DNA of 32,000 bases, taken from positions 4,830,001 to 4,862,000 of the forward strand of contig OZ245049.1 in the NCBI GenBank assembly GCA_965224465.1, written 5' to 3'. Of this stretch, positions 6,137-31,436 are shown piece by piece. The position numbers and the translations under genes were made by a program. The notes beneath the pieces are model-generated. The model was given only the letters and a program-made list of their open reading frames with translations, ran no database searches and was not told the DNA's origin. Source of the stretch: Flavobacteriaceae bacterium. GTDB taxonomy: Bacteria; Bacteroidota; Bacteroidia; Flavobacteriales; Flavobacteriaceae. Positions within the stretch are counted from its first letter, which is position 1. Every line of letters begins with the position of its first letter.

Positions 6137-6229
6137 GTGTTTTTTTAACTTTAAAAATAGACTTCAATAATATTTACATTCGTTATTTGTGTTGATTTAA
6201 AGATGCTTACGGAATGTGAGTGCTTTGAA

Positions 6230-6346
6230 TTGCTTGAAAATTTATAAAAGTTGAATACTTTTTTTAAAAAAACAACACATACCCCGAAACTATGATAGAC
6301 ATAACGGAAATAATGTCAAGTTTAGGGAGTTTATTGATGATATATG
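6230..6346 (+). repeat. Island repeat family A, copy 1 (contains the ACGGAAATAATGTCAAGTTT core)
   Basis: By eye it aligns along about 115 nt with 12690-12806 (ttgcttgaaaattta...gtcaagttt.g.gagtttattgatgatata). Its core is shared with 14500-14540 and 16513-16553. Confidence 0.8.
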
Positions 6347-6458
6347 GGGGTTGGGTTTCATTAGATAAGCTCATCTAAATTTTAATACATTTCAAAAGGA
6401 AATAGATAATAGCTGAAATTTTTCTAACACACCTTGATAGAAAATGGAGTTGAATTGC

Positions 6459-6466
6459 TACATTTG
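6459..6466 (+). promoter_or_regulatory. Possible Bacteroidota -7 promoter box (TACATTTG = TAnnTTTG) for the 6485-9314 operon
   Basis: Matches the TAnnTTTG consensus 19 nt upstream of ATG 6485. No clean -33 TTTG was seen. Confidence 0.25.
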
Positions 6467-6484
6467 TGAAAATCATATAGAAAA

Positions 6485-7360
6485 ATGACATTAAAAGAAA
6501 GAAATATCAATAATAAAATGAGAAGTTATTCTTCGATATTTTCTAGCACTTCTTTTTCTAAATTATTAAAAGAAGATGATTTTTCATTTATTAACTCTAA
6601 AATATCCCGTTATGATATCCCCAAAATAGGTGTGAAAATTCATACTTACACAGATTATATCAAATACACATATAATGAATTAAGGAAACAATACCGTAAT
6701 GAATATATTTATAAAAACACATTTATTAACGAAATATTAATCAATGATTATGGTGTAAAAGATACTATTGTTATCAATGAATTTCGTGTAGGTAATTCTA
6801 TTGCAGACCTTGTTATGTTTAATGGAACAAGTAAAGCCTTTGAAATTAAAACTGAACTCGACACAGATAAACGCCTAAGTGGTCAGTTACTAGATTATAA
6901 AAAAGCATTTAAAGAATGTTATATTGTTACTCACGAATCGCTTACTGCTAAATATTTAAAAGAAGATAACTCTATCGGTATTATTGAATTAATTGAAACC
7001 CCAAGAGGATTGAAAATGCAAGAAGTAAGACCCGCAATAGAGAATGAAGAAGTGGATTCTGAAACGATAATGCGTTGCCTTAGAACCAACGAGTACAAAA
7101 GTATTGTAAAGAAACACTACAATGAATTACCTGAAATGACTAGTTTTAATATGTTTAATATTTGTAAAGAATTATTGTTTCAAATTCCTAATGACATTCT
7201 CAATCTATTATTTATTGGGCAGTTAAAATTAAGAAAATCCAATACATCTAAAATAAATACACACCTTAAAGAATTGAGACAAATAGGTATTGCTTTAAAT
7301 TTAGATGCTAAACTATCTGGGCAATTAATTAATAAACTCAATACAACTATTAAATTATAA
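6485..7360 (+). CDS. sce7726-family-like protein with a PD-(D/E)xK nuclease-type motif
   Basis: YRNEYIYKNTFINEIL...INEFRVGNSIADLVMFNGTSKAFEIKTELD gives an E...D...ExK arrangement. The overall pattern matches my recollection of the sce7726 family, which normally pairs with sce7725. The next ORF begins 4 nt later. Confidence 0.65.
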   Translation: MTLKERNINNKMRSYSSIFSSTSFSKLLKEDDFSFINSKISRYDIPKIGVKIHTYTDYIKYTYNELRKQYRNEYIYKNTFINEILINDYGVKDTIVINEFRVGNSIADLVMFNGTSKAFEIKTELDTDKRLSGQLLDYKKAFKECYIVTHESLTAKYLKEDNSIGIIELIETPRGLKMQEVRPAIENEEVDSETIMRCLRTNEYKSIVKKHYNELPEMTSFNMFNICKELLFQIPNDILNLLFIGQLKLRKSNTSKINTHLKELRQIGIALNLDAKLSGQLINKLNTTIKL

Positions 7361-7364
7361 TATT

Positions 7365-8285
7365 ATGTATTATCCATATCTTAGAGGACGACAATTTGAG
7401 TTAATTGCTTTACGAGAGTACGCTTTAATCAGAGGTGAAAATAATAATGTTATACCTATAATAGAGCCTGTTAAAAAAACGTTTAACAGTTTAAAATTGG
7501 CTATTCCCAAATTTATAGAAGGGAATATGAGATTTGCATTGATACTAAACCCGCAGGTTGGAGAAATTAAAAATTTTAAAACTATTGTTACTGAATTACA
7601 AGAGCAATTAGCAGATAAATCTAAATGGATTCCTGCATTTATTGTTACAACCAATATTGATTTAATAAATAAAGAAATTGAGAGCAATAATTATACTGAA
7701 GTTATGATTATTTGTTCGGATAGAGCTGATACAACGAGTGCTGGTTTTTTAGAATTTATATCTGATAAAAGAATAAAATATGTTGTTTCTAAAGAGAACA
7801 GAACTTTAAAAAGAAAATTAAAAGGAAAAGATGTTATTAGGCTAGATGATAGTTTTAACTCACAAAAAAGGAATAAAGATTTTTTATCCATAAGTGAAGA
7901 AAAGTTTACGGAAGAGCATTTGTTTTATAAAGATGATAATTATGCGGGTTTTTCGGACTATACTGCTCTTATCAGTGATTTTATAGAGGGAGGTGGAGCA
8001 CCATATGCTGTTGCCATTCACTTGACCTATCAAAAGGATAGTGAAGATATTTGGATTCGTCATTTTACATCTATTAGCAATGATGATATTGCAAATATTC
8101 AAGGAAAGTTTGCAGAGGCTGTAAGAAAAGCAGTTAATTTTATTGATACAGAGTCATTAGATACGGAAGCAACAAAAGAATTGAAAAATTATTATGTTGA
8201 AGAGAAGTATCCTGGGCTTGGAATGGTAAAAAAAATTTCAATTAAAAACCACTTAGAATTAATCAACAAAGTAATTTCAAAATAG
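7365..8285 (+). CDS. sce7725 / Beta-protein family member (phage P4 beta-like)
   Basis: The N-terminus MYYPYLRGRQFELIALRE...VIPIIEPV is the characteristic start of the Pfam Beta_protein / sce7725 family. Tightly spaced between both neighbours. Confidence 0.65.
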   Translation: MYYPYLRGRQFELIALREYALIRGENNNVIPIIEPVKKTFNSLKLAIPKFIEGNMRFALILNPQVGEIKNFKTIVTELQEQLADKSKWIPAFIVTTNIDLINKEIESNNYTEVMIICSDRADTTSAGFLEFISDKRIKYVVSKENRTLKRKLKGKDVIRLDDSFNSQKRNKDFLSISEEKFTEEHLFYKDDNYAGFSDYTALISDFIEGGGAPYAVAIHLTYQKDSEDIWIRHFTSISNDDIANIQGKFAEAVRKAVNFIDTESLDTEATKELKNYYVEEKYPGLGMVKKISIKNHLELINKVISK

Positions 8286-8288
8286 TAT

Positions 8289-9314
8289 ATGAAAGTTTGT
8301 AAAGAATGTTTCAACGATATTGAAATTAGAAGTTTTATAGAGTTCAATTCATTAGACAAAGGAAAATGTGATTATTGTAGCAATGGCATTCATTCAGAAT
8401 TAATTGAAGTAGGAGAATTGTTAGATTTCTTCGCAGAATTTGTTGATGTTTTTGAAGAAGATCCTGATGGAAATGAAACATTAACTGAGCTTATTCAAAA
8501 AGATTGGAATTTATTTGCAGGAGAAAGTGAAGCACATGATGTTTTATCTGATATTCTATTAGCATTAGGTACTCCAATTACTTCTCCTTCTGACATTGTG
8601 AGTTATGCTACTGGAATTAATGATTGTATTTCATATTGGGATACACTAAAGGAAGAGTTGAAGTGGCGGAAAAGGTTTTTAACAAATACAGAAGAACTTG
8701 AAAACTTAGGATGGGATAGCCTTTTCAGTATTGAAAATATTTTACCTGCTAATACAACTCTTTACAGAGCAAGAGTACATCATGCAGAGCGTAAAGAACC
8801 TTACGCTACAAATGAAATGGGTTACCCTGAAAAAGAAAAAGTATCAGAAGGCAGAGCAAATCCACAAGGTATACCATACTTATATCTGAGTAAAGCTCTT
8901 AAAACTACATTGTATGAAACGCGTGTATCTTACCTTGATGAATTAAGTATTGGAGAGTTTAAGATTAAAGAGGGTGAAAATATTATTTTGGTTGATTTTA
9001 CTGAAAAATTAAATGCTTTTAAAAATATTGATAATATTAAAAATCATACAAAAGGAGTGTTACTAAAAAACAGGATAAGTAAATCACTTTCTAAGCCAAT
9101 TCGCAGGTATGATTCAAGGTTAGAATATATTCCAACCCAATTTATTTGTGAATACATTAGGTATATTACAAATGCTGATGGTATTTTATTTAATAGTTCC
9201 TTAGATTTAGTTGGAGGAGTAAATGTTGTATTATTTGAACAACATAAAGTTAAATGTGATAGCGTTGAAATGTATCGGATAAAAGATATTGACATTACAC
9301 CTGAGAAAATTTAA
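8289..9314 (+). CDS. Zn-ribbon N-terminal domain fused to a RES domain (putative NAD+-targeting effector)
   Basis: N-terminus CKECF...(18)...CDYCS, a four-Cys ribbon. RES triad in the expected order and context: TLYRARVH (R), GRANPQGIPYLYLS...TLYETRV (E), ILFNSSLD (S). Confidence 0.7.
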   Translation: MKVCKECFNDIEIRSFIEFNSLDKGKCDYCSNGIHSELIEVGELLDFFAEFVDVFEEDPDGNETLTELIQKDWNLFAGESEAHDVLSDILLALGTPITSPSDIVSYATGINDCISYWDTLKEELKWRKRFLTNTEELENLGWDSLFSIENILPANTTLYRARVHHAERKEPYATNEMGYPEKEKVSEGRANPQGIPYLYLSKALKTTLYETRVSYLDELSIGEFKIKEGENIILVDFTEKLNAFKNIDNIKNHTKGVLLKNRISKSLSKPIRRYDSRLEYIPTQFICEYIRYITNADGILFNSSLDLVGGVNVVLFEQHKVKCDSVEMYRIKDIDITPEKI

Positions 9315-9362
9315 ATTTAGGGGTTTAAGGACAAGTATCAATCACTCGTTACACCAAAGAAA

Positions 9363-9488
9363 ATGATATTTGGTAGAATTAAAATAAAACAACAAAAACC
9401 CAATCGAGTAGACGGCTCCAACTTTTCCTTTGATAAAAAAGGAGCGGAAAAACTAAAAGAAAAACTAATCGAATATAAAAAGAACTAA
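9363..9488 (+). CDS. Possible 41-aa small basic protein (MIFGRIKIKQQKPNRVDGSNFSFDKKGAEKLKEKLIEYKKN)
   Basis: ATG-to-TAA ORF below the ORF-track cutoff, same strand, 48 nt after the RES gene. No motif recognised. Confidence 0.15.
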   Translation: MIFGRIKIKQQKPNRVDGSNFSFDKKGAEKLKEKLIEYKKN

Positions 9489-9498
9489 ATGCGTTGCC

Positions 9499-10697
9499 CA
9501 ATAACTAATTGTTCCTACGGTGTAGCGTCCAGTATGAACATTCTGTTGGCTATACCGGCTCAAAAGATGATACTATGGGGATTGCGTGTTTTAATTAAGA
9601 GGCTATCGATAGTAAATGCGGAAGTGTCTTTATATTCAAACCATCTTCTAATGCATGAGACGCAAAGCAATGTCGTAGGGCATGCATTGTTATAGGCTTA
9701 TCAATACCACTTTTTTTATGTGCTTGCACAAAAGCATGAGGCACACCTCCAGAACTCATAGGCTCGCCTTTAAACCTTCCATTAAAAAGATGTATTTTAG
9801 GTTTACACATTTCAAAATACCTGCGTAGCTCCTCTAAAATTGTATTATATAAAATGGTGTACCGGTCTTTCGATCCTTTTCCCCTTATTAATTCAGACAC
9901 GCATTTTTCCATCCTTTGTTTCAATGTCATGTATTTTTAAATGTACTAGTTCAGGTCTTCGGAGCCAATCGAATACAACTAGCGAAACATGACTTTGTGC
10001 TTATGATTAATACAGCTTTCAAACAATAATTGTAACTCCTCCCGACTAATAATTAAAGGTAAACTTGGCTTTTCTTTGGGATAGGGAGTTTTCTGTGTTA
10101 AGGATACATTTTCTAGTGTTTCCTGAAAGTAGTATCGCAATCCTGTGTTTATATTAACCCAAAAGTATACCGCTATTTCAGTGGAAAAGTATACCAGTAA
10201 ATTTTTAAAAAAAACTAAAAAATCAATCATCTGATCTAGCTCCAATTCCTTGGGGTCTTTATCGTGAAAATCATACAATTTGACTAGCCCACGGACATAG
10301 TTCCGTATGGTTCGATCGGATTTATTAGCAACGATCATCCGATTTTCATAAATACGAACCAAGTTTGCTAATTCTTTTTTTACTACCTTTACTTCTGTTG
10401 TACTAAGGCTTTTTTCTTCTGTGTTTTTCATGTTATTCTGATTTTAAATGAATAACACAGAAGTTAAGGGGGCGCAACGTAAGCTACACCTGAGGTGTTT
10501 AGTGCAACAAAGTGTAAAAATAATAAGGGTTAAGTGCGAAGCCAGAAGTTGGTGTGTATTAATAAAGTCCACCAAATTTATATTTTAACGGTATAAAGAA
10601 AATAAAGGTAAAAATTGTAAATTTGGATAAGTGCTAAACTCGAAAAGTAAGTGCATTTTAATTCCTTATTATTCTTATATAAACCGTTGTAGCCAAT
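9499..10697 (-). mobile_element. Putative recombinase-bearing parent copy of the inverted-repeat-bounded island element (decayed)
   Basis: The left arm 9499-9609 (caataactaattgttcctacggtgtagcg...ggctatcga) matches the left arms at 13803 and 17568. The right end, cgttgtagccaat at 10685-10697, matches 14086-14098 and 17858-17870. The interior carries the integrase pseudogene. Confidence 0.4.
9595..10431 (-). pseudogene. Tyrosine recombinase/integrase pseudogene (three in-frame stops, 3' truncation)
   Basis: ORFs 9979-10431 (SAM-like N-domain, TIRNYVRGLVKLYDFH) and 9595-9930 (GKGSKDRYT, HALRHCFASHALEDG) are in the same frame. The 9931-9978 linker reads *LYSIGSEDLN*YI*KY. The ORF stops at LLSIAS before the expected LLGH...Y catalytic-Tyr segment. 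Confidence 0.8.
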
Positions 10698-10720
10698 TCC
10701 TACTTTTAAAGAAAAAAAAT

Positions 10721-12145
10721 ATGAAACTAAAAATTACTTTTTTATGTCTTTTAGCACTAATTCATGTTAGTTGTCAAAATAAAATTTCAGGAACTTCAGA
10801 AGAAGATTTTAAATCATCTCGAATAGAAGTGATAAAAGACTTAACATCTGAAGAACAAGAAAAGTTAGAAAAAGCATTTAGGATTGTTGCCTTATATGCA
10901 ATGGAAGAGAAATGGAATAATTCTGACAACTATATTGACAAATCTATAAACGAAATCACACTAGATATTGTAAACAATAAAACGTACAATGGCCTTGTTG
11001 ATTTTGCGGAAAATTTTCTAAAACTAGAAAATAAAGAAAAAATAAAAAAAATTGAAATGAAAATTTCAGATATAGGATTAAATAGAAAAAAGACTGATTC
11101 TATTATTAGAATACTAGAAGCTTTTAAACCTACAGGAATCAAAATCTATAAAGGAAGTTGGGATGAACCTACTGTTAGTGTTAAAATACTTAATAAAGGT
11201 AACTTAACCGAAATAACTGAATATATGTTTAATTTATGTATATACTCCATTTCTCAAAATAAAGTGATTGATGTTGTGGTGTCTGGTGGTGGTTCTGAAA
11301 AAGGAAGGTCAAAGGGAGAAGGCGATTTTTTTGCTTATGTGTCAAGGTCCTTATCTCCAATAATTGCAAAAAGTAAACGCTTAGAAAAGCAACTGAAAAA
11401 CCCTGAATATCCTATTACCAATTTACAAGAATATGACTTACGTGTAGAGGTCAGACCAAGTAAAATAGTTCTTAAAGACGGAACTAGATATGATTATCCA
11501 AAAAAGATTTTAGCTGATTATGATGCTGAAATTAAAATTTTACAAGAGCAATTAAAACAATTAAAATCTTTAGATGTGAGACTAGACGAATTATCACTTA
11601 AAGAATCAGATTCAGAAAATGAAACCGCTTATAATGAAGAGTTCTTACCATTATTAGAAAAAATAAGAAAGGTTAAAAATAATTCTGATGAAAGAGTATT
11701 AAAAATACATAAAAATCTAGCCTTCACTTTCCCCTCTAAATATGAAATTAAAAAAGAAAAAAATGGGGGAATATATATCTTTTCATTAAGTGATAGTCTA
11801 AGTTATGATATTAGTGATAAAAATCTTATTCAATATCAAATAAGAGATACTGCATATATAGAATATGAAGACAAGTATGATAAAGAGCATGGTGTACTAA
11901 ATATCTTAAAAAAAGAAAACGTATCCTACGATATTAAAGAAACTATTAACAGTTTGAAAATTGCAGGTGGCCATTATAAGTTAATTGATGCTGATGATTC
12001 AGGGTATATATACTTCCGTAGTGATTCTTACAAACTTTTACGTTATTTTAAAATAAAAGGTACTCATTATTCGTATTCTATGGATTTCAATAATTTAAAG
12101 GAATGTATCCGAGAATTTGACCGTTCAAAAGGAATGATAAAGTAA
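10721..12145 (+). CDS. Hypothetical lipoprotein with a coiled-coil-rich central region
   Basis: The internal ATG at 10721 gives MKLKITFLCLLALIHVSC (lipobox Cys). The ORF is long and uninterrupted in AT-rich DNA. No family recognised. Confidence 0.6.
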   Translation: MKLKITFLCLLALIHVSCQNKISGTSEEDFKSSRIEVIKDLTSEEQEKLEKAFRIVALYAMEEKWNNSDNYIDKSINEITLDIVNNKTYNGLVDFAENFLKLENKEKIKKIEMKISDIGLNRKKTDSIIRILEAFKPTGIKIYKGSWDEPTVSVKILNKGNLTEITEYMFNLCIYSISQNKVIDVVVSGGGSEKGRSKGEGDFFAYVSRSLSPIIAKSKRLEKQLKNPEYPITNLQEYDLRVEVRPSKIVLKDGTRYDYPKKILADYDAEIKILQEQLKQLKSLDVRLDELSLKESDSENETAYNEEFLPLLEKIRKVKNNSDERVLKIHKNLAFTFPSKYEIKKEKNGGIYIFSLSDSLSYDISDKNLIQYQIRDTAYIEYEDKYDKEHGVLNILKKENVSYDIKETINSLKIAGGHYKLIDADDSGYIYFRSDSYKLLRYFKIKGTHYSYSMDFNNLKECIREFDRSKGMIK

Positions 12146-12162
12146 TTGGCTACAATAACTAA
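12145..12162 (+). repeat. Solo left-end of the island element (ATTGGCTACAATAACTAA)
   Basis: Same sequence as 17560-17577 (tggctacaataactaa). It is the inverted partner of TTGTAGCCAAT at 10687-10697. Confidence 0.7.
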
Positions 12163-12201
12163 CTCAACTTACGCAATATTAATTTAGATTTAAGGAAATA
12201 A

Positions 12202-12526
12202 TTGTCTATATTGTTAATAACTCTGAGAAGAAAAAAGACGGATAATTTTGTTGATTTATACACCGATTATTTGATAAGTTCAAGTTCTTATACTACAGCA
12301 ACAGGAATGTCTCACTTGCTTTGCGTAAAACATGATAAAATAACAAGAGCATTGTCAACAGGTGTTTACGACAGTAAATTTCTACAGAAAACGGTAAAGC
12401 CTTATATTGAAGAATTGACTCAAGCAAAAAAAAACATTATTTTAAGTTTTGATGATTCTATACAAGAAAAACAAGATGCAAAAGAAAGTGAACTTAACAC
12501 TTGGTATTTTGACCACGTGTTTGGGA
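12202..12526 (+). pseudogene. N-terminal fragment of a DDE transposase (IS4/IS701-like)
   Basis: FVDLYTDYLISSSSYTTATGMSHLL...HDKITRALS resembles the conserved N-terminus of Bacteroidota IS701/IS4-type transposases, from memory. It has a TTG start, covers only about 108 codons and then runs into repeat sequence at about 12521. Confidence 0.4.
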
Positions 12527-12625
12527 TACTGATAAGTATTGGTCAGCAGCGTTTGGTATGCGTTTTCCATTAGTGTCTACATTTATTTTTTTGCTTATTA
12601 GCACCTACTTTTATTTAGGCGATGC
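12521..12625 (+). repeat. Right-arm segment of the island element (gatactgataagtattggtcagcagcgtttgg...)
   Basis: Aligns with 14010-14085 and 17760-17855. Diverges before the terminal gttgtagccaat. Confidence 0.65.
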
Positions 12626-12689
12626 TTCTCCAAAAATCACAGAGATTTACACCAAGACCATCGAAATGAATAATGAAAAAATTGTTGGA

Positions 12690-12806
12690 TTGCTTGAAAA
12701 TTTAAAAAATTTGAATACATTTAACAAAAAACATCACATAATCTGAAACTATTATAGATATAACGTCAAGTTTTGTGAGTTTATTGATGATATACGTGTG
12801 TTGTAA
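12690..12806 (+). repeat. Island repeat family A, copy 2
   Basis: Aligns with 6230-6346. Relative to copy 1 it lacks the 9-nt ggaaataat. Ends in gtgttgtaaaac. Confidence 0.8.
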
Positions 12807-12824
12807 AACATTAAAAACAAAAAT

Positions 12825-13082
12825 ATGAGTAAACTTAAAAATATTTTAGAAAAACAAAACCAGATTTGGGTTTTCTTAATTGGAATAATATTAATTGCAG
12901 CAGGAATTTACTTTTTTTTAGACATACAATCTAAGGAAATAGCAGGAACAGAAGTTCGTATGAAAAAAATATTTCAACTAGTCTATAACTTTGGAGGAAA
13001 ATACGCAATCCTTGCAATTTTTGAAGTTGTAGGACTTATTGCATTAATTTCGGGAATACAACAACTAAGAAATAAATTATAA
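12825..13082 (+). CDS. Small membrane protein (two predicted TM helices)
   Basis: 85 aa with hydrophobic stretches IWVFLIGIILIAAGIYFFL and YAILAIFEVVGLIALISGI. Lies 5 nt upstream of the next ORF. Confidence 0.45.
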   Translation: MSKLKNILEKQNQIWVFLIGIILIAAGIYFFLDIQSKEIAGTEVRMKKIFQLVYNFGGKYAILAIFEVVGLIALISGIQQLRNKL

Positions 13083-13087
13083 TTAAT

Positions 13088-13807
13088 ATGAGCGAAAATA
13101 TATACTACATAATAGGAGGAATTGCAGTCGTTTTTACAATTTATATAATCTTTGTGGGCACTTATGCAAGTAAAAGAAAGAAAAAACAACTAGAGAAATT
13201 CACCAGCCTTAAACCCTTAAATAGAAACGAAAAAAACACTTTAGTCTTTGGTGCAATCCTTTCTTATCATAGAGGTGAAGATATATTAGAAATAAAGCCA
13301 AAGGATTCAATTGATTTATACAAAAACGGACTTAGAGATTCTTGGGAAATAACAAGTAAAGAAGAAGCACTTGAAACAATTAATAATTTAATTTTTTTAG
13401 AAAGAAGCAAAGAATTTGATGCCTTTTTAGAACAGCCTTCTTCCGACTTAACTAAAGTGCAAAAGAATATAGCAAAAGGTTTAAAATTAGAACTAGAAGA
13501 AATACAAAAAGTAAAATCAACTTTTGCTTGGGATACTTGTAGATCTGTATCGTTAACAAAATGGTGCTTTTGGTGTGGCTATTTATCAGAACAAGAATGT
13601 TGGGAACTTATAAACAATGCCGTAAAAGTTGCTCAAAGTTTAGGTTCAAATTGGGAAAACTATACAATCTCTTTTTTACTAGGAAGAACAATGCAAGGTT
13701 TTGATTTAGAAGACATAATAATAGAATCCGAACAACTTTTAAGTGGGGTAACTTTACTTGGGAAAAAAGAAATCCTAAGTGTTTATTCAAAATTTCCTTA
13801 CAAATAA
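13088..13807 (+). CDS. DUF1266-like protein with an N-terminal TM anchor
   Basis: FAWDTCRSVSLTKWCFWCGYLSEQECWELINNAVKVAQS...FLLGR matches the AWD..R......GY.sE.E.W signature I associate with DUF1266. N-terminal TM segment YYIIGGIAVVFTIYIIFVG. Confidence 0.6.
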   Translation: MSENIYYIIGGIAVVFTIYIIFVGTYASKRKKKQLEKFTSLKPLNRNEKNTLVFGAILSYHRGEDILEIKPKDSIDLYKNGLRDSWEITSKEEALETINNLIFLERSKEFDAFLEQPSSDLTKVQKNIAKGLKLELEEIQKVKSTFAWDTCRSVSLTKWCFWCGYLSEQECWELINNAVKVAQSLGSNWENYTISFLLGRTMQGFDLEDIIIESEQLLSGVTLLGKKEILSVYSKFPYK

Positions 13808-14110
13808 CTAGGTGTTCCTACGGTGCGTAGCGCCCAGCATGAATATAATGTTGACTATACCGGCTCAAAAGATGATACTATGGGGATTGCGTTATTTAAT
13901 TATGAGGCTATCGACAAAGATCTTTATAGATAGCACCTATTTTTAGGTCATTTGCTCTCATGCTCTTTTGTGGGGATAGATTTTCACTATTTTAAGATAC
14001 GGATTATTGTTGGTCAGCAGCGTTTGGTAAGCGTTTCCCATTACGTTGGCATGTTTTTTTTTGCTTATTAGTAGCTCCTTTTATGCGTTGTAGCCAATAG
14101 GCAGGAGGTC
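13803..14110 (+). repeat. Island element, short (MITE-like) copy
   Basis: About 300 nt, collinear with 17561-17883. The left arm overlaps the TAA stop of the DUF1266 gene. The right end is gcgttgtagccaataggcaggaggtc. Confidence 0.8.
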
Positions 14111-14155
14111 TACTTCCGCTAAACAGATAGACTGTTTTTAGTTTTCCTGTCTTAC

Positions 14156-14230
14156 AATCGTTCTATGTTTTATCAACGCTAGAACGTGAATTAAACTATT
14201 TATATCGATCATTTTGGATTGTAAGTGGAT
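14156..14230 (+). repeat. REP-like dispersed repeat (cgttct...caacgctagaacgt...ctatttatatcg.tcattttggattgtaa)
   Basis: Shares sequence with 18177-18214, 21131-21280, 21901-21966 and 26300-26430. Confidence 0.7.
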
Positions 14231-14235
14231 AAACA

Positions 14236-14540
14236 AAACACCTGAAAAACGACTAAATACGCCTAAATATTCTCTGTGAAAACAACGTAATTATCTACTA
14301 TTAAAATACCACGTTTAGGATAAGAACAAGTATTCTTGTTGATATTCTGAAAAATAGAGATTAATGTATGAAAACTTTTACGAAAAATAATTAAAAGGTT
14401 AGTGTGCAAAAAGAATGTCTTTTGTATATTTGAAGGACGCTGTATACCGTATATAGCGGAATTAAAAATAAATATAATTACACCGCTATTGTTGCTGTCA
14501 CGGAAATAACGTCAAGTTTTGGCTTGTTATTGTGGATATA
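14236..14540 (+). repeat. 305-bp direct repeat B, copy 1 (ends with the family-A core)
   Basis: Near-identical by eye to 16249-16553, with scattered substitutions. Contains a TATATTTG box and hairpin-forming segments. Confidence 0.9.
14425..14432 (+). promoter_or_regulatory. TAnnTTTG -7-like box (TATATTTG) inside repeat B; conserved copy at 16447-16454
   Basis: Exact consensus match conserved in both repeat copies, followed by conserved hairpins. The distance to ATG 14702 is about 270 nt. Confidence 0.3.
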
Positions 14541-14701
14541 TCTGTTATTTGGTTCTTTTCTAGTACTATAGTGCTTCCTAGAAATAGATTTTTATAGATT
14601 TGAGCAATATGAGTAACAAAATCGAAGCACTGACACCCAACATTAGTTAAAATCAATACTACCCTTCGGTCGTACTGCTATTAGCCCTATTCTAAAAAAA
14701 A

Positions 14702-15859
14702 ATGCCATCAACAATAACAAAGTATAAGATTTTTTTAGCTTCACCAAGTGACCTTCAGGATGATAGAGCTTCTATTGACGAAGTTATAAATGAGTTAAAT
14801 TTCACATTTGGAAAGCAACACGATATTCATTTGGAACTATTAAAATGGGAAACACATTCAGCACCAGCAATTGCAATTAATCATCCTCAAGAAATTATAA
14901 ACTCTGATTTAGGAGACGACTATGATTTATTTATTGGACTTATCTGGAAAAAATTTGGAACACCAACAAAAGAAGCTGATTCTGGAACAGAGGAAGAATT
15001 TTTGAATGCATATAATCGATTTTTAGAAAATCCTAATTCACTACAGATTCTCTTTTATTTTAATAGTAAACCAGTATCTATAAGTGAGATGAATGCTGAA
15101 CAATTATTAAAAATTCAAAATTTCAAATCGGATATAGGGAAAAATAAAAAAGTTTTATATTGGGAGTATCAAGATACACAGCAATTAAATAAGTTTTTGA
15201 GAATACATATTCCTCAAAGAATATTAGAATTAAAAAAAAGTGCACAAAATAAGTTAGCTATTATAGAAAAAGATGAAGTTTTAGCAGTTGAGATATTAAG
15301 TGAAGAGTTTGGACTAATTGATTATCAAGAAATGATAGAAGATGGTTTTCGAGAATCTACAGAATCTTTGTTAAGAATTTCAAATGCTACCGAATGGATT
15401 GGCGAACAGCTGAATAAAAAAACAGCCGAGGCAAATACTATGACAGCTAATGGTAATCAACCCAGTCTCAAAACATTAAAAAATTATTTTATTAGAACTG
15501 CCAAAATAATGGATAATTATGCTAATCGTATTGAACCTGAAATTCCAATATTTCAAGAATATTTTGAAAAAGGAATAGACGCATTATCTAATGTAATTAA
15601 TATTTCAACAAACGACTTAGGTGTCGAACAGGATGAAATTGATGAAACTAAAGAATCCTTAGCAAGCCTTATCGAAGGAATATCATTTGGAATAGATAGT
15701 ATGAACAGTTTTTTACAATCGGTAAATGATCTACCAAGGATGTCTAAAGAATTAAATAAAGCTAAAACTAACGTTGGAACAAAATTAGAAGATTTATTAG
15801 ATAATTTAAGGATTAGCTTATCAATAGGAATTGAGTTAAAAAAGAGCCTTGAGGAATAA
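14702..15859 (+). CDS. DUF4062/TIR-like N-terminal domain protein with a helical C-terminal region
   Basis: The N-terminus YKIFLASPSDLQDDRASIDEVINEL ... DLFIGLIWKKFGTP...SGTEEEF matches the (V/I)F(I/L)SS..DL..ER ... G.....SGTE.E pattern recalled for DUF4062-type TIR-like domains. The C-terminal ~200 aa are rich in helix formers. Confidence 0.5.
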   Translation: MPSTITKYKIFLASPSDLQDDRASIDEVINELNFTFGKQHDIHLELLKWETHSAPAIAINHPQEIINSDLGDDYDLFIGLIWKKFGTPTKEADSGTEEEFLNAYNRFLENPNSLQILFYFNSKPVSISEMNAEQLLKIQNFKSDIGKNKKVLYWEYQDTQQLNKFLRIHIPQRILELKKSAQNKLAIIEKDEVLAVEILSEEFGLIDYQEMIEDGFRESTESLLRISNATEWIGEQLNKKTAEANTMTANGNQPSLKTLKNYFIRTAKIMDNYANRIEPEIPIFQEYFEKGIDALSNVINISTNDLGVEQDEIDETKESLASLIEGISFGIDSMNSFLQSVNDLPRMSKELNKAKTNVGTKLEDLLDNLRISLSIGIELKKSLEE

Positions 15860-16092
15860 AACTGTGCCCCTAACCCCTAGTGATTAAAATTACGTGGGGC
15901 CGTTGAATCCTACTAATTTTATCGTCTTGTTGCACTGAACGCCGTGTAATTACAAGCAATAGTTATTAAAATACCTCCTTGTGTATTTTTGGTTGTGTAA
16001 TTTGAAGACAGCCATTTTTGGATTGACTACAGCCATTTTTTTATAAAAACACTTGTTTTAAGTCCATTATTCTTTATGTTTTAGGGTAAATG

Positions 16093-16149
16093 GGTATTGC
16101 TTTCTCTTAGTTTTAAAAAACAGCACCTTCCCTTTATTTAGGGACGTAT
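16093..16149 (+). repeat. Short repeat E, copy 1 (ggtattgctttctcttagtttt...ccctttatttagggacgtat)
   Basis: Matches 18040-18094. Confidence 0.7.
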
Positions 16150-16248
16150 TTTACCAGTTCGTAAACTTCAAATAAACTCACAAAAGCTTTCCAATTCCTT
16201 CTCTGTACACCTCTAAAAACGTCGTAAAAACATTCTTAAGGAGCTAGT

Positions 16249-16553
16249 AAACACCTGAAAATTACTAAATACGCCTAAATATTCTCTGTGAAAACAACGT
16301 AATTACCTAATATTAAAATACCTCGTTTAGTATAAAAATAGGTACTCTTGTTGATATTATGAAAAACAGAGATTAATGGTTGAAAACTTTTACGAAAAAC
16401 AATTAAAAGGTTAGTGTGCGAAAAGGATGTCTTTTGTATATTTGAAGGACGCTGTATACTGTATATAGCGGATTTTTTAAATAAATATAATTACACCGCT
16501 ATTGTAGCTATTACGGAAATAACGTCAAGTTTTGGCTTGTTATTGTGAATATA
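16249..16553 (+). repeat. 305-bp direct repeat B, copy 2
   Basis: See 14236-14540. Here it points into the 3' end of the convergent antitoxin gene. Confidence 0.9.
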
Positions 16554-16598
16554 GAGGTGTTGTACCCCGTTGGAATAGAGATGGTGAAATGGCGATTT

Positions 16599-17096
16599 CT
16601 ATATTCCTAATTCCATTATTTTCTTCGAAAGTTCTTCTTTTTTACGATTGTCTATAGAATCACACACTCGAATATAATAAGATAAAATATCTTTATTATT
16701 AATACTCATCTTGATTAATCTTCCACTAGTCAGAGATGTTACTCCATCATTTTCAATATTAGAGATTGTATTTTTACTAAAACCTAATATGACACTTAAT
16801 GTTGATGCAGCAATATGATATTTTTCCCTAAAACTAATAATTTCATTTGGAGCAGCAGCCCCTTTGGCTATAAGATAAGAACTCTTTAGTTTTTTCATAT
16901 TACGACTAACTTGACCCTTAGTGTAATACTCAACTTTACTTTGTCTATTGATCATACCAGTATCTTCATCAACATCATAGTCTAAATAATACACTTCCTT
17001 ATATGTTAACTTAATACCTTTGAACGTTTTTTCTACAGTTCGTTGTAATTCATCGGTAGGTTTATTCTCTCTTGTTAATATTTTTTTTGTTTCCAT
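16599..17096 (-). CDS. XRE-type HTH protein, MqsA-like antitoxin candidate
   Basis: C-terminal HTH REKYHIAASTLSVILGFSKNTISNIENDG. Located 4 nt downstream of the toxin-like ORF, in toxin-first order as in mqsRA. Confidence 0.55.
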   Translation of the reverse strand: METKKILTRENKPTDELQRTVEKTFKGIKLTYKEVYYLDYDVDEDTGMINRQSKVEYYTKGQVSRNMKKLKSSYLIAKGAAAPNEIISFREKYHIAASTLSVILGFSKNTISNIENDGVTSLTSGRLIKMSINNKDILSYYIRVCDSIDNRKKEELSKKIMELGI

Positions 17097-17100
17097 AATT

Positions 17101-17481
17101 TTAATTTTTAAATGGTTGACTCATTGGGTAATCAGGTATATGGTTTGAGAATATTAGAATTTGTAAGCCATTAACTTCAAGTCCATATTTCAAATAAACT
17201 TCAACCTTAGCATTTCCGACAAATACACGAAAAGCACAAACATTAAAATCACCTCCGCCAGATGGGGCAATACCTCTGTAATAATTTTCAGGTGTTAAAT
17301 TTAGAATTGCATATTCTATGTCATCCTCATTTATATCATAATCGAGCATTAATTCCTCTAACTCAGAATTCGCTTTTCTTGTGAAAGTTATATCTACGCC
17401 CTCAGAAATTCTCTTTTTTGTCTCTGCTAGAAATTCCTGTATTATTTTAATATTGTCAATCGTGTCTGGTAATATTATCAT
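17101..17481 (-). CDS. MqsR-like toxin candidate
   Basis: The internal ATG at 17481 (MIILPDT) is preferred over the tracked start. Small protein with LNLTPENYYRG...VCAFRVFVGNAKVEVYLKYGL...ILIFSNH, which resembles the MqsR family layout from memory. Confidence 0.45.
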   Translation of the reverse strand: MIILPDTIDNIKIIQEFLAETKKRISEGVDITFTRKANSELEELMLDYDINEDDIEYAILNLTPENYYRGIAPSGGGDFNVCAFRVFVGNAKVEVYLKYGLEVNGLQILIFSNHIPDYPMSQPFKN

Positions 17482-17560
17482 AGATGTAATTATATAGCTT
17501 ATGCAAATATACATAAAACACCTACTAATTCCCAATAATTGGGTAAGAAATACAATAGCT

Positions 17561-17883
17561 GGCTACAATAACTAAGTGTTCCTACGGTGCGTAGCGCCCA
17601 GTATGAACATCCTGTTGACTATACCCGCTCAAAATCTATTACTATGAGTATTGCGTATTTTAATTAAGAGGCTATCGACAAAGATCTTTATAGATAGCAC
17701 CTATTTTTAGGTCATTTGCTCTCGCGCTCTTTCATAGGAATTGGTTTGTACTGTTTTTCGATACTGATAAGTATTGGTCAGCAGCGTTTTGGCATGCGTT
17801 TTCCTTTAAGGGGCTACATTTATTTTTTTTGTTCGGTTATTAGTACATGCTTTTATTCGTTGTAACCAATAGGCAGGAGGTCA
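17561..17883 (+). repeat. Island element, short (MITE-like) copy
   Basis: ggctacaataactaagtgttcctacggtgcgtagcg ... ttattcgttgtaaccaataggcaggaggtc. Collinear with 13803-14110. The termini are inverted repeats of each other (ggctacaa / ttgtaacc). Confidence 0.8.
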
Positions 17884-18039
17884 GCAAGCTATAAGCGGGT
17901 TTTGTACCCAATAAATTGTTCGATGTTTATAACTTAAAAAGGAGGAGGTTTTCAATTAAAACAGAATTATATTCTATTGGTATTAACAACCTTTGTCCTC
18001 CTTTTATTTCCTGAATTTAATGTTTTACTAACTTAGGTT

Positions 18040-18094
18040 GGTATTGCTTTCTCTTAGTTTAAAAAAATATCTCTTCCCTTATTTAGGGACGTAT
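18040..18094 (+). repeat. Short repeat E, copy 2
   Basis: Matches 16093-16149. Confidence 0.7.
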
Positions 18095-18107
18095 AAGCGA
18101 ATAGATT

Positions 18108-18149
18108 GAAAAAACAAAAGATAGCCACAATGGCTATCTTTTGTTTTAA
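18108..18149. terminator. Bidirectional rho-independent terminator
   Basis: Perfect 13-bp stem, caaaagatagcca (18115-18127) with tggctatcttttg (18131-18143), and a 3-nt loop. An A-run lies on the left and a T-rich run on the right. About 75 nt past the alpha-galactosidase stop. Confidence 0.75.
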
Positions 18150-18176
18150 ATAAGAATGAGACCTAAAGTAATACCA

Positions 18177-18214
18177 AACTATTTATATCGTTGGTTTTGG
18201 ATTGTAATTGATAT
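18177..18214 (+). repeat. REP-like dispersed repeat (short form)
   Basis: aactatttatatcgttggttttggattgtaattgatat. Abuts the stop codon of the minus-strand gene at 18218. Confidence 0.65.
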
Positions 18215-18217
18215 AAG

Positions 18218-19456
18218 TTATTTAGGACTCTTAGTTTTTGCTTCTTGAAAAGGATTAAAATTATTAGAAGTTCCTTTGAATTTCAACACTATTACAGCAT
18301 GGTTTGGAATGGTAAAAGTGATTTTTTCAGCTGTTTTTTTAGCGTATTTTTTATCCGTCCATTGGTTTTCTATAGTATAACCAGCGCTTGCTTGCATTCC
18401 TATATCTTTGATGTCAAAAGTAAAGCTAGCTGTTTTATTTGAACGATTTAGTAGAGCCACAGCTACTTTTCCACTCATGGTATGCAAAAGAGGTTTAGCC
18501 CATAGTTCCACACTGTCGGTTTTTATCAATCTACGTGCTTGATAGCCCAATGCGTCTTGATTGATGGAAATAAGTTTTTTATTGGTTAAAATATCAATTG
18601 TCTGTTGCGACATTGCACTCAAATCATTTCCCGCTAATAAAGGAGAATTCATCATGCACCACATGCTAAAATGTGCTTTATCTTCGTCCAATGTCATTCC
18701 GCGTCCTACTTGTAACATGTCCATGTCGTTTACATGTCCAGGAGAAGAATACATCCATAAATCTGCATTTAAATCTATAATGTCTAGGATGGATTGGAAT
18801 TCGTTCGTGATATCTCCAGATATTCTCCATGAATCAGCAATTGGGAGTGCCCATTTACCAGGGAATTCCCATCTACAGATATTATAAATGGCAGTGGGTT
18901 TAATTTCGTGAATTAATTTCCCAATGTTGGTGTAACTGGTTTGCTCATCCAGTCCAAGCCATTCACCTCCACACCAATCTATTTTTAAAAAATCATAATT
19001 CCATGTTTTTAAAAACAAAGAGATGTCTTTTTGTTCGTGTCCATACATTCCAGATCCTACACTAATAGGGTCTTTGTCCCAACGGGAACCACAAGTATTG
19101 ATTCCTCCATCGGAGTATATTCCTGCTTTTAATCCTTTTGAATGTATGTAGTCTGAGAGGCTACGCATTCCAGAAGGAAATCGTGTTTTATGTGAAAGTA
19201 AATTACCGATACTGTCTCTTCCTCCAAAAAAACCATCATCTATATTAATAAAACTATAACCCGCATCTTTCATTCCAGAAGAGACCATAAAATCTGCTTG
19301 TTTTTTAATGATGTCTTCATTGATCTTTGTATGGTAGTTATTCCAACTTGCCCAACCCATTAATGGAGTCTTTGGTTTTGAAACATTGTTTTCTGTTACT
19401 GGTTCTGAACAGGAATAACAAATGTAAATCAGCAATAGACAGGTGATTTTTTTCAT
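18218..19456 (-). CDS. Alpha-galactosidase, glycoside hydrolase family 27, lipoprotein
   Basis: PLMGWASWNNY...FINIDDGFF...DFLKIDWCGG motifs are typical of GH27 melibiases. Signal MKKITCLLLIYICYSC. Confidence 0.85.
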   Translation of the reverse strand: MKKITCLLLIYICYSCSEPVTENNVSKPKTPLMGWASWNNYHTKINEDIIKKQADFMVSSGMKDAGYSFINIDDGFFGGRDSIGNLLSHKTRFPSGMRSLSDYIHSKGLKAGIYSDGGINTCGSRWDKDPISVGSGMYGHEQKDISLFLKTWNYDFLKIDWCGGEWLGLDEQTSYTNIGKLIHEIKPTAIYNICRWEFPGKWALPIADSWRISGDITNEFQSILDIIDLNADLWMYSSPGHVNDMDMLQVGRGMTLDEDKAHFSMWCMMNSPLLAGNDLSAMSQQTIDILTNKKLISINQDALGYQARRLIKTDSVELWAKPLLHTMSGKVAVALLNRSNKTASFTFDIKDIGMQASAGYTIENQWTDKKYAKKTAEKITFTIPNHAVIVLKFKGTSNNFNPFQEAKTKSPK

Positions 19457-20783: not shown

Positions 20784-20975
20784 TTTGATGATTTTGTATG
20801 ATATTATACAAAGATACACCCTGATAGTTAGAGGTACAAAAGAAAGGTGTGAATTTTAGCGAATAAAGGAATGTTGATTTAGACAAAAGGAAACAAAAAA
20901 ATAGTAGGAAGTGCATCTTATTTTTGAGAAATCACACATCCTGCGCGTTGGTTTTTAGTGAATTATGTCCGTAAA

Positions 20976-21080
20976 ACTTCCAAATGACTGTATAGGAAGA
21001 ACGTTTTATTTTTTGATTTATCTAGCTGGAAATCTAAGGATACCCTTAGCTACCGTTCTGTTTTTTAAGAATGATAAAAC
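20976..21080 (+). repeat. REP-like dispersed repeat, divergent copy
   Basis: cttccaaatgactg...tctagctgg...cccttagctaccgttctg parallels 21131-21225. Confidence 0.5.
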
Positions 21081-21130
21081 GAAAAAAGCTTGATTTACAA
21101 CAGTCATTTGGATGTGTTTTTGGTCTAATA

Positions 21131-21280
21131 CATTTCCAAGTGACGTTTTAGAAATGGAATTATTTTTTGTTTTAGCTAGGTAAAAATGGAAGGATAACCA
21201 TAGCTATCGTTCTATTTTTTAACAACGCTAGAATGTAAAACAAACTATTTATATCGGTCATTTTGGATTGTAATTGGTAT
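21131..21280 (+). repeat. REP-like dispersed repeat, full-length copy
   Basis: catttccaagtgacgttttagaaatggaattattttttgttttagctagg...ccatagctatcgttct...caacgctagaatgt...ctatttatatcggtcattttggattgtaattggtat. Confidence 0.8.
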
Positions 21281-21289
21281 AGATGGGTG

Positions 21290-21478
21290 TTAATTGTCTT
21301 TCACTCCTAATCTTGTTAATATTTTTTCTAACATACACCAGTTGGTAAATGCATATTGTAATAAGTTGGCGCCTACAAACCCTGCGAGCCACAACCAATT
21401 TTGATGTACGTAGATACTTAATAATACACTTGACAGGATAAAAACACCTGCAATTCCTTTGATTAAACGTTGTTTCAT
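21290..21478 (-). CDS. DUF2892 (YgaP-like) small membrane protein
   Basis: 62 aa. [15 protein letters not shown]...[19 protein letters not shown] fits the two-TM DUF2892 pattern, from memory. Confidence 0.55.
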
Positions 21479-21802: not shown

Positions 21803-21834
21803 AATTTGAGATTTTTAAGATGAGTATATGAACT

Positions 21835-21869
21835 CCCTATAAAAATGTATGGTCATATTTTTTATAGGG
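21835..21869. repeat. 11-bp-stem inverted repeat (ccctataaaaa / tttttataggg)
   Basis: Perfect stem with a 13-nt loop, between the RND gene 3' region and the 21802 start. No trailing T-run on the minus strand. Confidence 0.5.
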
Positions 21870-21900
21870 TGTTCACATGTTGTTTGATAGTTGCATCAAA

Positions 21901-21966
21901 CATATTTCCAAGTGACGGTTTAGAAATGGAATTATTTATATCCGTCATTTTGGATTGTAATTGGTG
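21901..21966 (+). repeat. REP-like dispersed repeat, internally deleted copy
   Basis: catatttccaagtgacggtttagaaatggaattatttatatccgtcattttggattgtaattggtg. Ends 1 nt from the RND stop codon. Confidence 0.75.
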
Positions 21967-26248: not shown

Positions 26249-26299
26249 GGTTTTATGTTTTTATACTGATATAATTAAGAGTTGAAATTTTATACGGCA

Positions 26300-26430
26300 A
26301 GAAATGGAATTATTTTTTGTTTTAGCTAGGCGGAAAATGGGTTGATAACCGTAGCTATCGTTCTGTTTTTCAACAACGCTAGAACGTAAAACAACTATTT
26401 ATAGCTATCATTTTGGGTTGTAATTGGTAT
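26300..26430 (+). repeat. REP-like dispersed repeat, full-length copy overlapping the TolC gene 3' end
   Basis: gaaatggaattattttttgttttagctaggcgg...ccgtagctatcgttctg...caacgctagaacgt...ctatttatagctatcattttgggttgtaattggtat. Confidence 0.8.
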
Positions 26431-31316: not shown

Positions 31317-31380
31317 GGCATAGTCTTAAGGGTTTCAAAACGTAAATGTAAATTCCTTTTATATGCTTTCAAATTTTTTC

Positions 31381-31421
31381 AAAAAAAACCGCTTTATTTT
31401 TAAATAAAGCGGCTTTTTTTT
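31381..31421 (-). terminator. Rho-independent terminator downstream of purB (hairpin is symmetric, could act on both strands)
   Basis: ccgctttattt (31389-31399) pairs with aaataaagcgg (31402-31412). Flanked by A8 on the left and T9 on the right. About 16 nt after the purB stop. Confidence 0.8.
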
Positions 31422-31436
31422 GACTGATTTTTAAGT

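Follow-up and report, generated by a model that had tools for sequence, protein, structure and literature searches.

How does a bacterial chromosome come to hold, between a nap operon and a gene for a GH27 alpha-galactosidase, a run of unrelated conflict genes whose borders carry the same few repeats? The question is raised by a 32-kb stretch of contig OZ245049.1 from a Flavobacteriaceae bacterium (GCA_965224465.1), here called the window, in which the segment 6137-18217, here called the island, follows the nap operon directly. We consider it likely that the island is a sedentary and decaying chromosomal array of integron-type cassettes that lacks its own integrase (in the terms of IntegronFinder a CALIN, a cluster of attC sites lacking integrases). 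An earlier note on this DNA had proposed that cassettes were gained and lost at a hotspot, and this idea was borne out by the same two repeats, A and L, around unrelated cargo elsewhere, by a clean replacement between the comparison contigs L011 and L012, by the inverse ends of the cassettes and by an A-like sequence after nap in contig L007 (comparison sequences are labelled L007-L016).

A and L proved to be the two ends of one inter-cassette joint, L being its 5′ end and A its 3′ end. L, recognised by the motif caataactaa, starts within a few bases of the cargo stop codon, and A just precedes the next cargo, its sharp end lying 14-233 nt upstream of the start codon for nearly every cargo examined. 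L copies were found at 9494-9609, 13796-14110 and 17561-17882, with the first 16 nt again at 12148, and A copies at 6225-6358, 12685-12808, 14236-14552 and 16249-16567; the copies of these repeats are 71-95% identical. At its 5′ end a joint reads as a cassette-specific N6-AA(C/T/G) at the R'' position and then the conserved L sequence AACTAAGTGTTCCTACGG..., and at its 3′ end as the conserved A sequence ...ATAACGTCAAGTTTTGG..GATATAnnnGT, followed by GTT-N6 at the R' position. The N6 after GTT belongs to the next cassette, whose own R'' box is its inverse complement.

Along the island, all these elements lie on the plus strand. The first A, of the long form (6225-6358), comes right after nap and ends in the R'-like box GTTGGGTTT (6350-6358); as there is no L before it, the array starts here. 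L copy 1 (9494-9609), truncated at 112 nt, has TTGCCCAAT at the R'' position followed by AACTAAT. A damaged joint (12148-12808) is made of an L start, GGCTACAAT-AACTAA (12148-12163), an IS701 fragment, the R tail of a composite L-M-R (12525-12614) and a long A ending in GTTGTAAAA (12685-12808). The complete joint (13796-14552) holds, in this order, an L-M-R with CCTTACAAAT at the R'' position (13796-14110; constant internal box GTTGTAGCC at 14087-14095), a fragment of a further repeat, X (14157-14228), and a composite Y-A ending in GTTATTTGG (14236-14552). Y-A copy 2 (16249-16567) ends in GTTGTACCC (16559-16567), and its part 16249-16553 is 91% identical to 14236-14540. The last L-M-R (17561-17882) has GGCTACAAT at the R'' position and an internal box GTTGTAACC at 17859-17867, and no A comes after it. 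The array end is eroded (17883-18217, +) and contains TTGTACCC at 17902, a fragment of repeat W, a palindrome (18111-18147) and, directly against the GH27 stop codon, an X fragment (18165-18220); W lies at 16093-16149 and also at 18040-18094. The scheme of the earlier note, in which A upstream and L downstream bracket every unit, held for the sce7726-RES operon, for the membrane protein (TM) plus DUF1266 genes and for the MqsA-like pair, and both repeat families are real; it failed for the lipoprotein gene, which has no upstream A and an IS91-type remnant in its place, and for the DUF4062 gene, which ends in a compact site of another kind. Of the units listed there, the integrase pseudogene and the transposase fragment turned out to be insertion debris inside joints.

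Boxes were then compared at fixed positions: at each A end the 6 nt that follow GTT, at each L start the 6 nt ahead of AA(C/T/G). Complementarity between the two ends of one cassette was 6/6 for the 404-aa cassette of L008, the DUF262-like pair and the 307-aa cassette of L012 and a cassette encoding a 209-aa protein, and 9/9 for the 148-aa cassette of L012 and the 226-aa cassette of L011. For the cassettes of the window, it was 5/6 for the MqsA-like pair (GGCTACAAT versus GTTGTACCC), 4/6 for TM plus DUF1266, 3/6 for the sce operon (8/9 with an alternative box, AAACCCAAT, at 9396-9404) and 2/6 for DUF4062. Non-cognate pairs had a mean of 2.2 with no perfect pair among 90, and shuffling of partners reached the observed total about once in 10,000 (permutation p about 1e-4). 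Since the ends obey a cassette-specific inverse rule, L corresponds to the R''/L'' end and A to the L'/R' end at the attC position, and these arrays have the inverse core sites of integron cassette arrays. Moreover, similarity to the arms of the compact sites described below is seen at both ends, between the L start TAAGTGTTC..CGG and the 5′ arm (TATAAGTAAT.GCGG) and between the A end TATACGAGTGTTG and the 3′ arm (TATACGAGACCGTTG). The attC-like sites were recognised here by end complementarity and folding; Rfam has no attC family.

We further studied whether the same joints occur around other cargo. Repeat A, repeat X and 15872-16172 all recurred in a blastn comparison of the window with L008, and a scan for the A pattern over one genome per species matched two Flavobacteriaceae contigs of metagenome-assembled genomes (MAGs). 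The same A and L flank unrelated cargo in L008, in L010, in L009, which was extended as L011 (MAG NORP167, GCA_002400885.1), and in L012, an ENA contig. L011 has the order A, 212-aa gene, 226-aa gene, L-M, X fragment, 28-residue integrase fragment, A, gene for the 209-aa membrane protein, L. L012 carries an identical 209-aa protein within at least five cassettes, and three of its joints are the same long L...A composites. The two contigs are 95.6% identical over 1790 nt, covering the joint, the 209-aa cassette and the next L, and the slot before this cassette holds the 212- and 226-aa genes in L011 and a 307-aa gene in L012; homology stops at the A end and restarts at the L start. By this alignment, the difference is a clean cassette replacement between relatives. 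No match was obtained with the L pattern in genome, viral and metagenome collections, with the A pattern in viral and metagenome collections, or with L-M-R in a blastn search against plasmids.

Homologues of the 209-aa gene (76-85% identical) were found in Maribacter, Tenacibaculum, Aequorivita, Dokdonia and others, often on contigs of less than 3 kb. In L014 (Maribacter sp., JBDVOT010000234.1, GCA_039968975.1) and L015 (MAG contig JASFZG010000203.1, GCA_046055745.1), the homologue lies inside arrays of short co-directional genes, 17 and 12 in number, with PoNi, DUF6090, DUF4279 and UDG genes among them. The genes are separated by repeats of 120-190 nt with N6-AAC right past the stop codon, an imperfect palindrome and a GTT-N6 end. 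Seven perfect 9/9 matches were found here in a first pass and ten cassette-flanking pairs in an unbiased scan; the start of the 209-aa cassette in these arrays, GTTGTAGTG, is the exact reverse complement of its end, CACTACAAC, and four of the five sites that were folded gave z scores of -3.6 to -4.0. Such arrays seem little documented in Flavobacteriaceae. The arrays extend over 1-13600 in L014 and 500-9400 in L015, as long co-directional series of genes of 100-300 codons. In addition to a PoNi immunity gene, the L014 array has a transposase of the IS110 family lodged in reverse orientation; the IS1111-attC group of this family targets integron attC sites.

Two further contigs showed related arrangements. 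L013 (Tenacibaculum sp., OZ038525.1, GCA_964036645.1) has, in a complete genome, a short array of small unannotated genes at 6200-10750, with no recombinase within 10 kb. A 49-nt repeat (ending TTTGTAG) stands before each of its last two genes and an 83-nt repeat after it. The latter opens with AATAACTAAGTCTTC, the core of L, and the downstream repeat in Tenacibaculum begins with the same AATAACTAAGT as L; a 21-nt tandem repeat in 12 copies lies at 6862-7218. L016 (CANMFM010000010.1) also carries the 209-aa gene homologue, in a region of more than 20 kb whose 25 genes all lie on the same strand, among them genes for beta-lactamase-fold proteins, AraC regulators, a DUF3885 protein and a ParE toxin. 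It was tried as another clean array and rejected, since a perfect GTT-N6/N6-AAC pair flanks only the gene at 18399-18917.

Compact attC-like hairpins were also present within the A...L arrays. The compact site of L008 (z -3.5) takes the classical attC shape, in which an R box, an unpaired spacer, an L box and bulged bases can be told apart; like the compact 150-nt hairpin of L011 (8066-8215, z -3.1), it ends in GATATATGGGT|GTT, as A does. The window holds one degenerate compact site (15866-15937, +), composed of GCCCCTAAC, CCCT, a hairpin (AGTGATTAAAATTACGTGGGG...CTACTAATTTTATCGT), CTT and GTTGCACTG; it has homologous sites in L008 and L012 and a z score of -0.3. Measured against the hairpins of attC, which span about 57-141 nt, the compact sites of L008 and L011 and four of the five sites of L014/L015 fold, and the L...A joints and the compact site of the window do not.

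Which recombinase might have moved the cassettes? The only one in the window is a tyrosine-recombinase pseudogene (9595-10431, -) with three in-frame stops, a lost 3′ end and no catalytic Tyr region. It is 75% identical in amino acids to P0121, an intact 304-aa protein on L008, where P0121 directly precedes an IS91 transposase (NF033538, 130 + 261 bits) that is split by a copy of repeat X. By its profile scores P0121 is Xer/IntI-like and not an integron integrase (202.5 bits against a cut-off of 220, and 165.7 against 265 for the integron integrase model TIGR02249, the latter in two stretches). The same homology indicates that the window pseudogene is a remnant of an IS91-type unit, made of the recombinase and the IS91 transposase. 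A tblastn search of the recombinase against plasmids gave only generic recombinases of 33-34% identity. L was also considered as the 3′ end of the recombinase gene and rejected, as the profile alignment stops at about 9597 and no integrase signal is present in L, M, R or Y.

Both ends of this unit are left in the island. One, with the pseudogene, covers 9610-10568 and finishes with TAGTGCAAC. The region upstream of the recombinase gene (10432-10612, +) is conserved with L008, and its fold is not significant (z -0.9); in it TAGTGCAAC (10500-10508), inverse to GTTGCACTG at 15929, is followed by an attC-like 5′ half, AAAG-TGTAAAAATAATAAGGG. The other is the transposase-distal remnant (15930-16172, +), which starts right past CTTG, includes the W copy at 16093-16149 and is 69% identical to L008 12278-12573, a segment that comes after the stop codon of the IS91 transposase. 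CTTG is a known target of IS91, and the IS91-type end abuts the CTTG at 15926-15929. We had taken 15872-16172 for a purely IS91 end, which was rejected: its first 60 nt are the compact attC-like hairpin common to L008 and L012, and the IS end starts past CTTG. The unit (15926-15937 and 10500-10508, with the equivalents in L008 and L012) begins exactly at the G|TT of the compact attC-like hairpin, which is also the CTTG target, and a 250-nt, internally deleted mini-version of it lies at L012 7372-7626. Being bounded by GTTGCACTG and by the inverse TAGTGCAAC with attC-like sequence, the IS91-type unit fills the place of a cassette; the array carries it as a passenger and is not explained by it. 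Further debris is an N-terminal fragment of an IS701 transposase (123 aa; 12202 to about 12526-12573, +) lodged in the joint after the lipoprotein gene. As a copy of the IS4/IS701-type transposase of L008 this fragment was rejected, since tblastn gave no match.

A cassette consists of a cargo plus the joint that comes after it. By analogy with integrons, it would be excised as a circle and inserted at the G|TT of the R' box by a tyrosine recombinase that would be encoded elsewhere or has since been lost. The junction of such a circle is predicted to read ...GATATAnnnGTG|TT-N6. The long joints may have arisen when foreign pieces entered an ancestral attC loop and then spread by cassette duplication or gene conversion. 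A probably supplies a promoter, to judge from its position upstream of the cargo. Present change probably proceeds mainly through homologous recombination of 0.3-kb repeats that share 82-91% identity, and the array itself is probably now mostly inert. Signs of decay are the swollen joints that do not fold, the reduction of the IS91-type unit to two remnants, the IS701 fragment in a joint and the partial complementarity of the ends.

Several results weigh against an integron-type array. The weakest complementarity is that of the window's own cassettes, being weak in the sce operon (3/6) and absent in DUF4062 (2/6), and the strongest support comes from related contigs and not from the window. 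The L...A joints are 0.5-1.1 kb long and contain the same fossil pieces in every copy; as composites of L-M-R, X fragment, integrase fragment and Y-A, they are 5-10 times as long as known attC sites. Folded against shuffled sequences, neither L-M-R (z -0.7), Y-A (z -1.7) nor a chimera of L start and A end (z 0 to -1.4) was better than the shuffles in a meaningful way. These 0.5-1.1 kb composite joints that do not fold as hairpins are the departure from known integrons. Moreover, the array terminates in an L-M-R without A, which a simple integron model does not predict. In L016, the 209-aa gene homologue stands in a co-directional region with one cassette obeying the rule, so that not every context of this gene is a cassette array. 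Finally, no integron integrase was found, either in the window or in the visible surroundings of the related arrays, the complete Tenacibaculum region included; a complete integron has an adjacent intI, a tyrosine recombinase with the IntI-specific additional domain that scores at the family cut-off, and the sole recombinase in the 32 kb is the pseudogene.

The joints also have extra R'-like boxes, GTTGTAGCC at 14087 and ATTGTAGC before A, which are constant and do not covary with the cassette. Two other models of the repeats were tried and rejected. L-M-R as a self-contained attC or miniature inverted-repeat transposable element (MITE) fails because its right-hand box GTTGTAGCC is constant while the L start varies, and because it has no fold; a target-site duplication fails because an 8-nt direct repeat flanks only the MqsA-like cassette. 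This repeat, TTGTACCC, stands at the start of that cassette (16559-16567) and again at 17902-17909, 20 nt past its L-M-R; in this stretch about 0.005 occurrences of an exact 8-mer are expected, and no other cassette has a similar direct repeat.

Could the island instead be an ordinary defence or accessory island at a recombination hotspot, with its repeats being dispersed elements similar to MITEs or repetitive extragenic palindromic (REP) sequences together with insertion sequence (IS) debris, and with turnover by homologous recombination and IS activity? We regard this as unlikely. X is truly dispersed, inside the island, outside it and in L008, IS701 and IS91 remnants are present, the joints have no fold, L-M-R has short terminal inverted boxes (GGCTACAAT and GTTGTAGCC), and the repeats are long and similar enough for homologous recombination, all as such an island would have it. 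However, every A and L copy in five contigs lies at a cargo boundary, in one orientation and in the order A-cargo-L, with none elsewhere in the window. The ends of a MITE are constant across copies, whereas the outer boxes here differ per cassette and are complementary within it, and the internal GTTGTAGCC box shows no covariation with the L start. The cassette-specific inverse boxes are left unexplained by tandem accretion of small integrative elements, or rolling-circle co-mobilisation of the IS91/ISCR kind, in which each unit had its own recombinase or transposase that later decayed into the L...A spacers. This we consider very unlikely, in spite of the integrase fragment in every spacer of L011 and L012, the near full-length pseudogene in the window and the IS91 end that abuts its CTTG target; IS91/ISCR elements mobilise adjacent DNA. 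Since the same 28 integrase residues occur at the same position in every spacer, they were copied with the spacer and did not decay independently, and L, M, R and Y have no trace of integrase or transposase coding. The island does resemble IS91-family ISs with an extra tyrosine-recombinase gene, in the 75% identity of the pseudogene to P0121 and in the unit end at CTTG, but in the window there are two remnants only, placed in a cassette slot.

It is likewise improbable that the array was built by an Xer-like, non-IntI tyrosine recombinase in the manner of the recombinase-associated arrays of acquired interbacterial defence genes (rAID-1) of Bacteroidales, for which the enzyme of the IS91-type unit would be the candidate. 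The likeness is considerable: same phylum, co-oriented short genes of low G+C, conserved intergenic repeats with integron-like motifs and conflict cargo (Ross et al., bioRxiv 10.1101/471110; PMC12247911). At least two co-directional downstream genes of low G+C with conserved intergenic motifs, part of the definition of rAID-1, are present in the window. One recombinase family occurs, as remnants or intact, inside arrays of three genomes and always against the cassette direction, its scores lie just under the Xer and integron-integrase cut-offs, and the Maribacter array has a PoNi immunity gene. In contrast, the defining feature of rAID-1 is an intact 5′ recombinase of the XerD type with at least 44% identity to BF9343_RS08045, and none of the arrays seen, that of the window included, has an intact recombinase at its 5′ end. 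The L008 recombinase is followed by the IS91 transposase and therefore looks like part of an insertion sequence. The cargo of rAID-1 is immunity to the type VI secretion system, whereas the window has phage-defence and toxin-antitoxin (TA) genes and no recognisable immunity genes.

Next to rAID-1, the closest known systems are sedentary integrons and CALINs (PMC9024848; PMC8618304), which share with the island and its relatives the co-oriented cassettes, the GTT-N6/N6-AAC inverse pair, joints that are similar within an array, low G+C, defence, orphan and reverse TA cargo, ISs in joints and assembly breaks at joints. The attC sites of one sedentary array are alike (PMC8618304), and sedentary integrons are rich in defence and TA cassettes (bioRxiv 10.1101/2024.07.02.601686). 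They differ in that no IntI is in view here, in that their sites are hairpins of 57-141 nt and not composites of 0.5-1.1 kb, and in that A sits like a promoter before nearly every cargo here. Integrons have been reported in Bacteroidota (PMC8618304), and IntegronFinder 2.0, as of 2022, listed for Bacteroidetes only In0 (integrase-only) elements and one complete integron (PMC9024848).

The cargo of the window consists of conflict genes, that is, the sce7726/sce7725/RES operon, a DUF4062/PDC-S60-like gene, a reverse TA-like pair, and orphan membrane and lipoprotein genes. Cassette 1 carries the three-gene operon (6485-9314, +; PADLOC PDLC02989), a candidate defence system composed of sce7726 (6485-7360, +; NCBIfam sce7726_fam, 170 bits, above cut-off), sce7725 (7365-8285, +; sce7725_fam, 304 bits, above cut-off) and a RES-domain protein (8289-9314, +; Pfam RES, 1.2e-14). 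It is followed by the orphan lipoprotein of 504 aa (10631-12145, +) and by a cassette (12825-13807, +) with an 85-aa membrane protein and a DUF1266 protein (13088-13807, +; Pfam, 2.6e-24). The DUF4062 protein (14702-15859, +; Pfam, 8.8e-7; PADLOC PDLC05050, 9.1e-51) aligns with the N-terminal part of the defence candidate PDC-S60 of PADLOC; the 404-aa cargo of L008 was tried as its homologue and rejected for lack of similarity. The last cargo is a reverse-oriented pair (16599-17535), namely an MqsA-like helix-turn-helix protein (16599-17096, -; TIGR03830, 4.2e-8, 33 bits against a cut-off of 61.8) and, upstream of it, a partner (17101-17535, -) with no family match in Pfam, NCBIfam, PADLOC or PDB. 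The family thresholds of MqsRA are thus not reached, the MqsA model being under cut-off and the partner without a match; such a reverse-oriented TA-like pair would stabilise the array. The gene list of the earlier note was recovered for sce7726/sce7725/RES, the integrase pseudogene, the lipoprotein, the transposase fragment, DUF1266, DUF4062 and, weakly, the MqsA-like gene; its MqsR-like partner matches nothing, and its DUF1266 pair has this domain in only one of the two proteins.

The island is AT-rich, as had been claimed: G+C was 0.301 against 0.370 in the left and 0.343 in the right flank (Mann-Whitney p = 1.6e-6, 500-nt windows), G+C at third codon positions 0.16-0.23 against 0.23-0.32 for flank genes, and coding density 71% against 90-94%. 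The left flank encodes napA, a NapB-like cytochrome, a multihaem cytochrome, an Fe-S protein and an NrfD-type membrane subunit, whose gene directly adjoins the first A. NrfD homologues, 88% identical in Lutibacter species and 95% on the 5.6-kb metagenome contig L007, place the host, a marine bacterium, in Flavobacteriaceae as a Lutibacter-like member. L007 is alignable yet diverged directly past the NrfD stop codon and shows an A-like sequence before the contig end, with a terminal box, CTTGGGTTG, that nearly equals the GTTGGGTTT of the window. The nap cluster is kept in the three Lutibacter-type genomes compared (L. profundi, L. agarilyticus and a TARA contig), where acyltransferase, peptidase M42 and DUF4294 genes, with or without RNase T, DUF294 and WYL genes, lie 3′ of it, and GH27/permease genes were beside nap in none of the three. 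As nap is conserved but the genes downstream differ and GH27 is never there, the left boundary is firm and the right flank is no genus-level partner of nap. Hence the flanks have the gene content that the earlier note described, but in the three genomes compared GH27 and the permease are not a conserved core flank.

The right flank holds the GH27 alpha-galactosidase, a xanthine/uracil permease, a resistance-nodulation-division (RND) efflux operon, an intact transposase, TerC and adenylosuccinate lyase. The transposase is a DDE enzyme of 522 aa (27903-29471, -; DUF772 + DDE_Tnp_1_2) between the RND operon and TerC, and it may mark a rearrangement point that would explain why this flank is not syntenic with other Lutibacter genomes. 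Scans of the window for tRNAs and with Rfam, at gathering and E-value thresholds, gave nothing relevant, so that group II intron remnants and a tRNA attachment site are both absent. Repeat X measures about 155 nt, contains an internal palindrome and is dispersed, being found at 20965-21290 (two tandem copies at 20978-21281), 21885-21990 and 26290-26445 of the window and at 11203-11370 of L008, with pieces in the island at about 14150-14240 and 18160-18225. Its conserved end (...GGTCATTTTGGATTGTAATTGGT) abuts the stop codons of the minus-strand GH27, YgaP-like, AcrB and outer-membrane efflux genes. Being dispersed inside and outside the island at stops of minus-strand genes, X is MITE/REP-like and stands outside the cassette system. 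Near-perfect intergenic palindromes at gene ends (18111-18147, 21826-21878, 27995-28026 and 31379-31423) are probably intrinsic terminators.

It is conceivable, if doubtful, that Flavobacteriaceae own an integron-like system with kilobase composite joints in place of attC hairpins of roughly 100 nt, a promoter-bringing A and an Xer/IntI-like recombinase, such as that in the IS91-type cassette; it would be related in mechanism to the rAID arrays of Bacteroidales. Arrays of Lutibacter-like bacteria, of Maribacter and of other Flavobacteriaceae follow the cassette rule, in a phylum in which integron-type arrays were very rare as of 2022 (PMC9024848). Since assemblies break at A and L, these repeats are usable as probes for more cassettes. 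The arrays hold genes of the phage-defence, TA and immunity type, the same kind of "biobank" as recently described for Vibrio integrons. The series of joints, from hairpins that look functional to kilobase composites, could show how far attC tolerates insertions, how arrays die and whether joints act as promoters, and the arrays offer an accessible related system in which to study how gut Bacteroidales assemble their rAID arrays.

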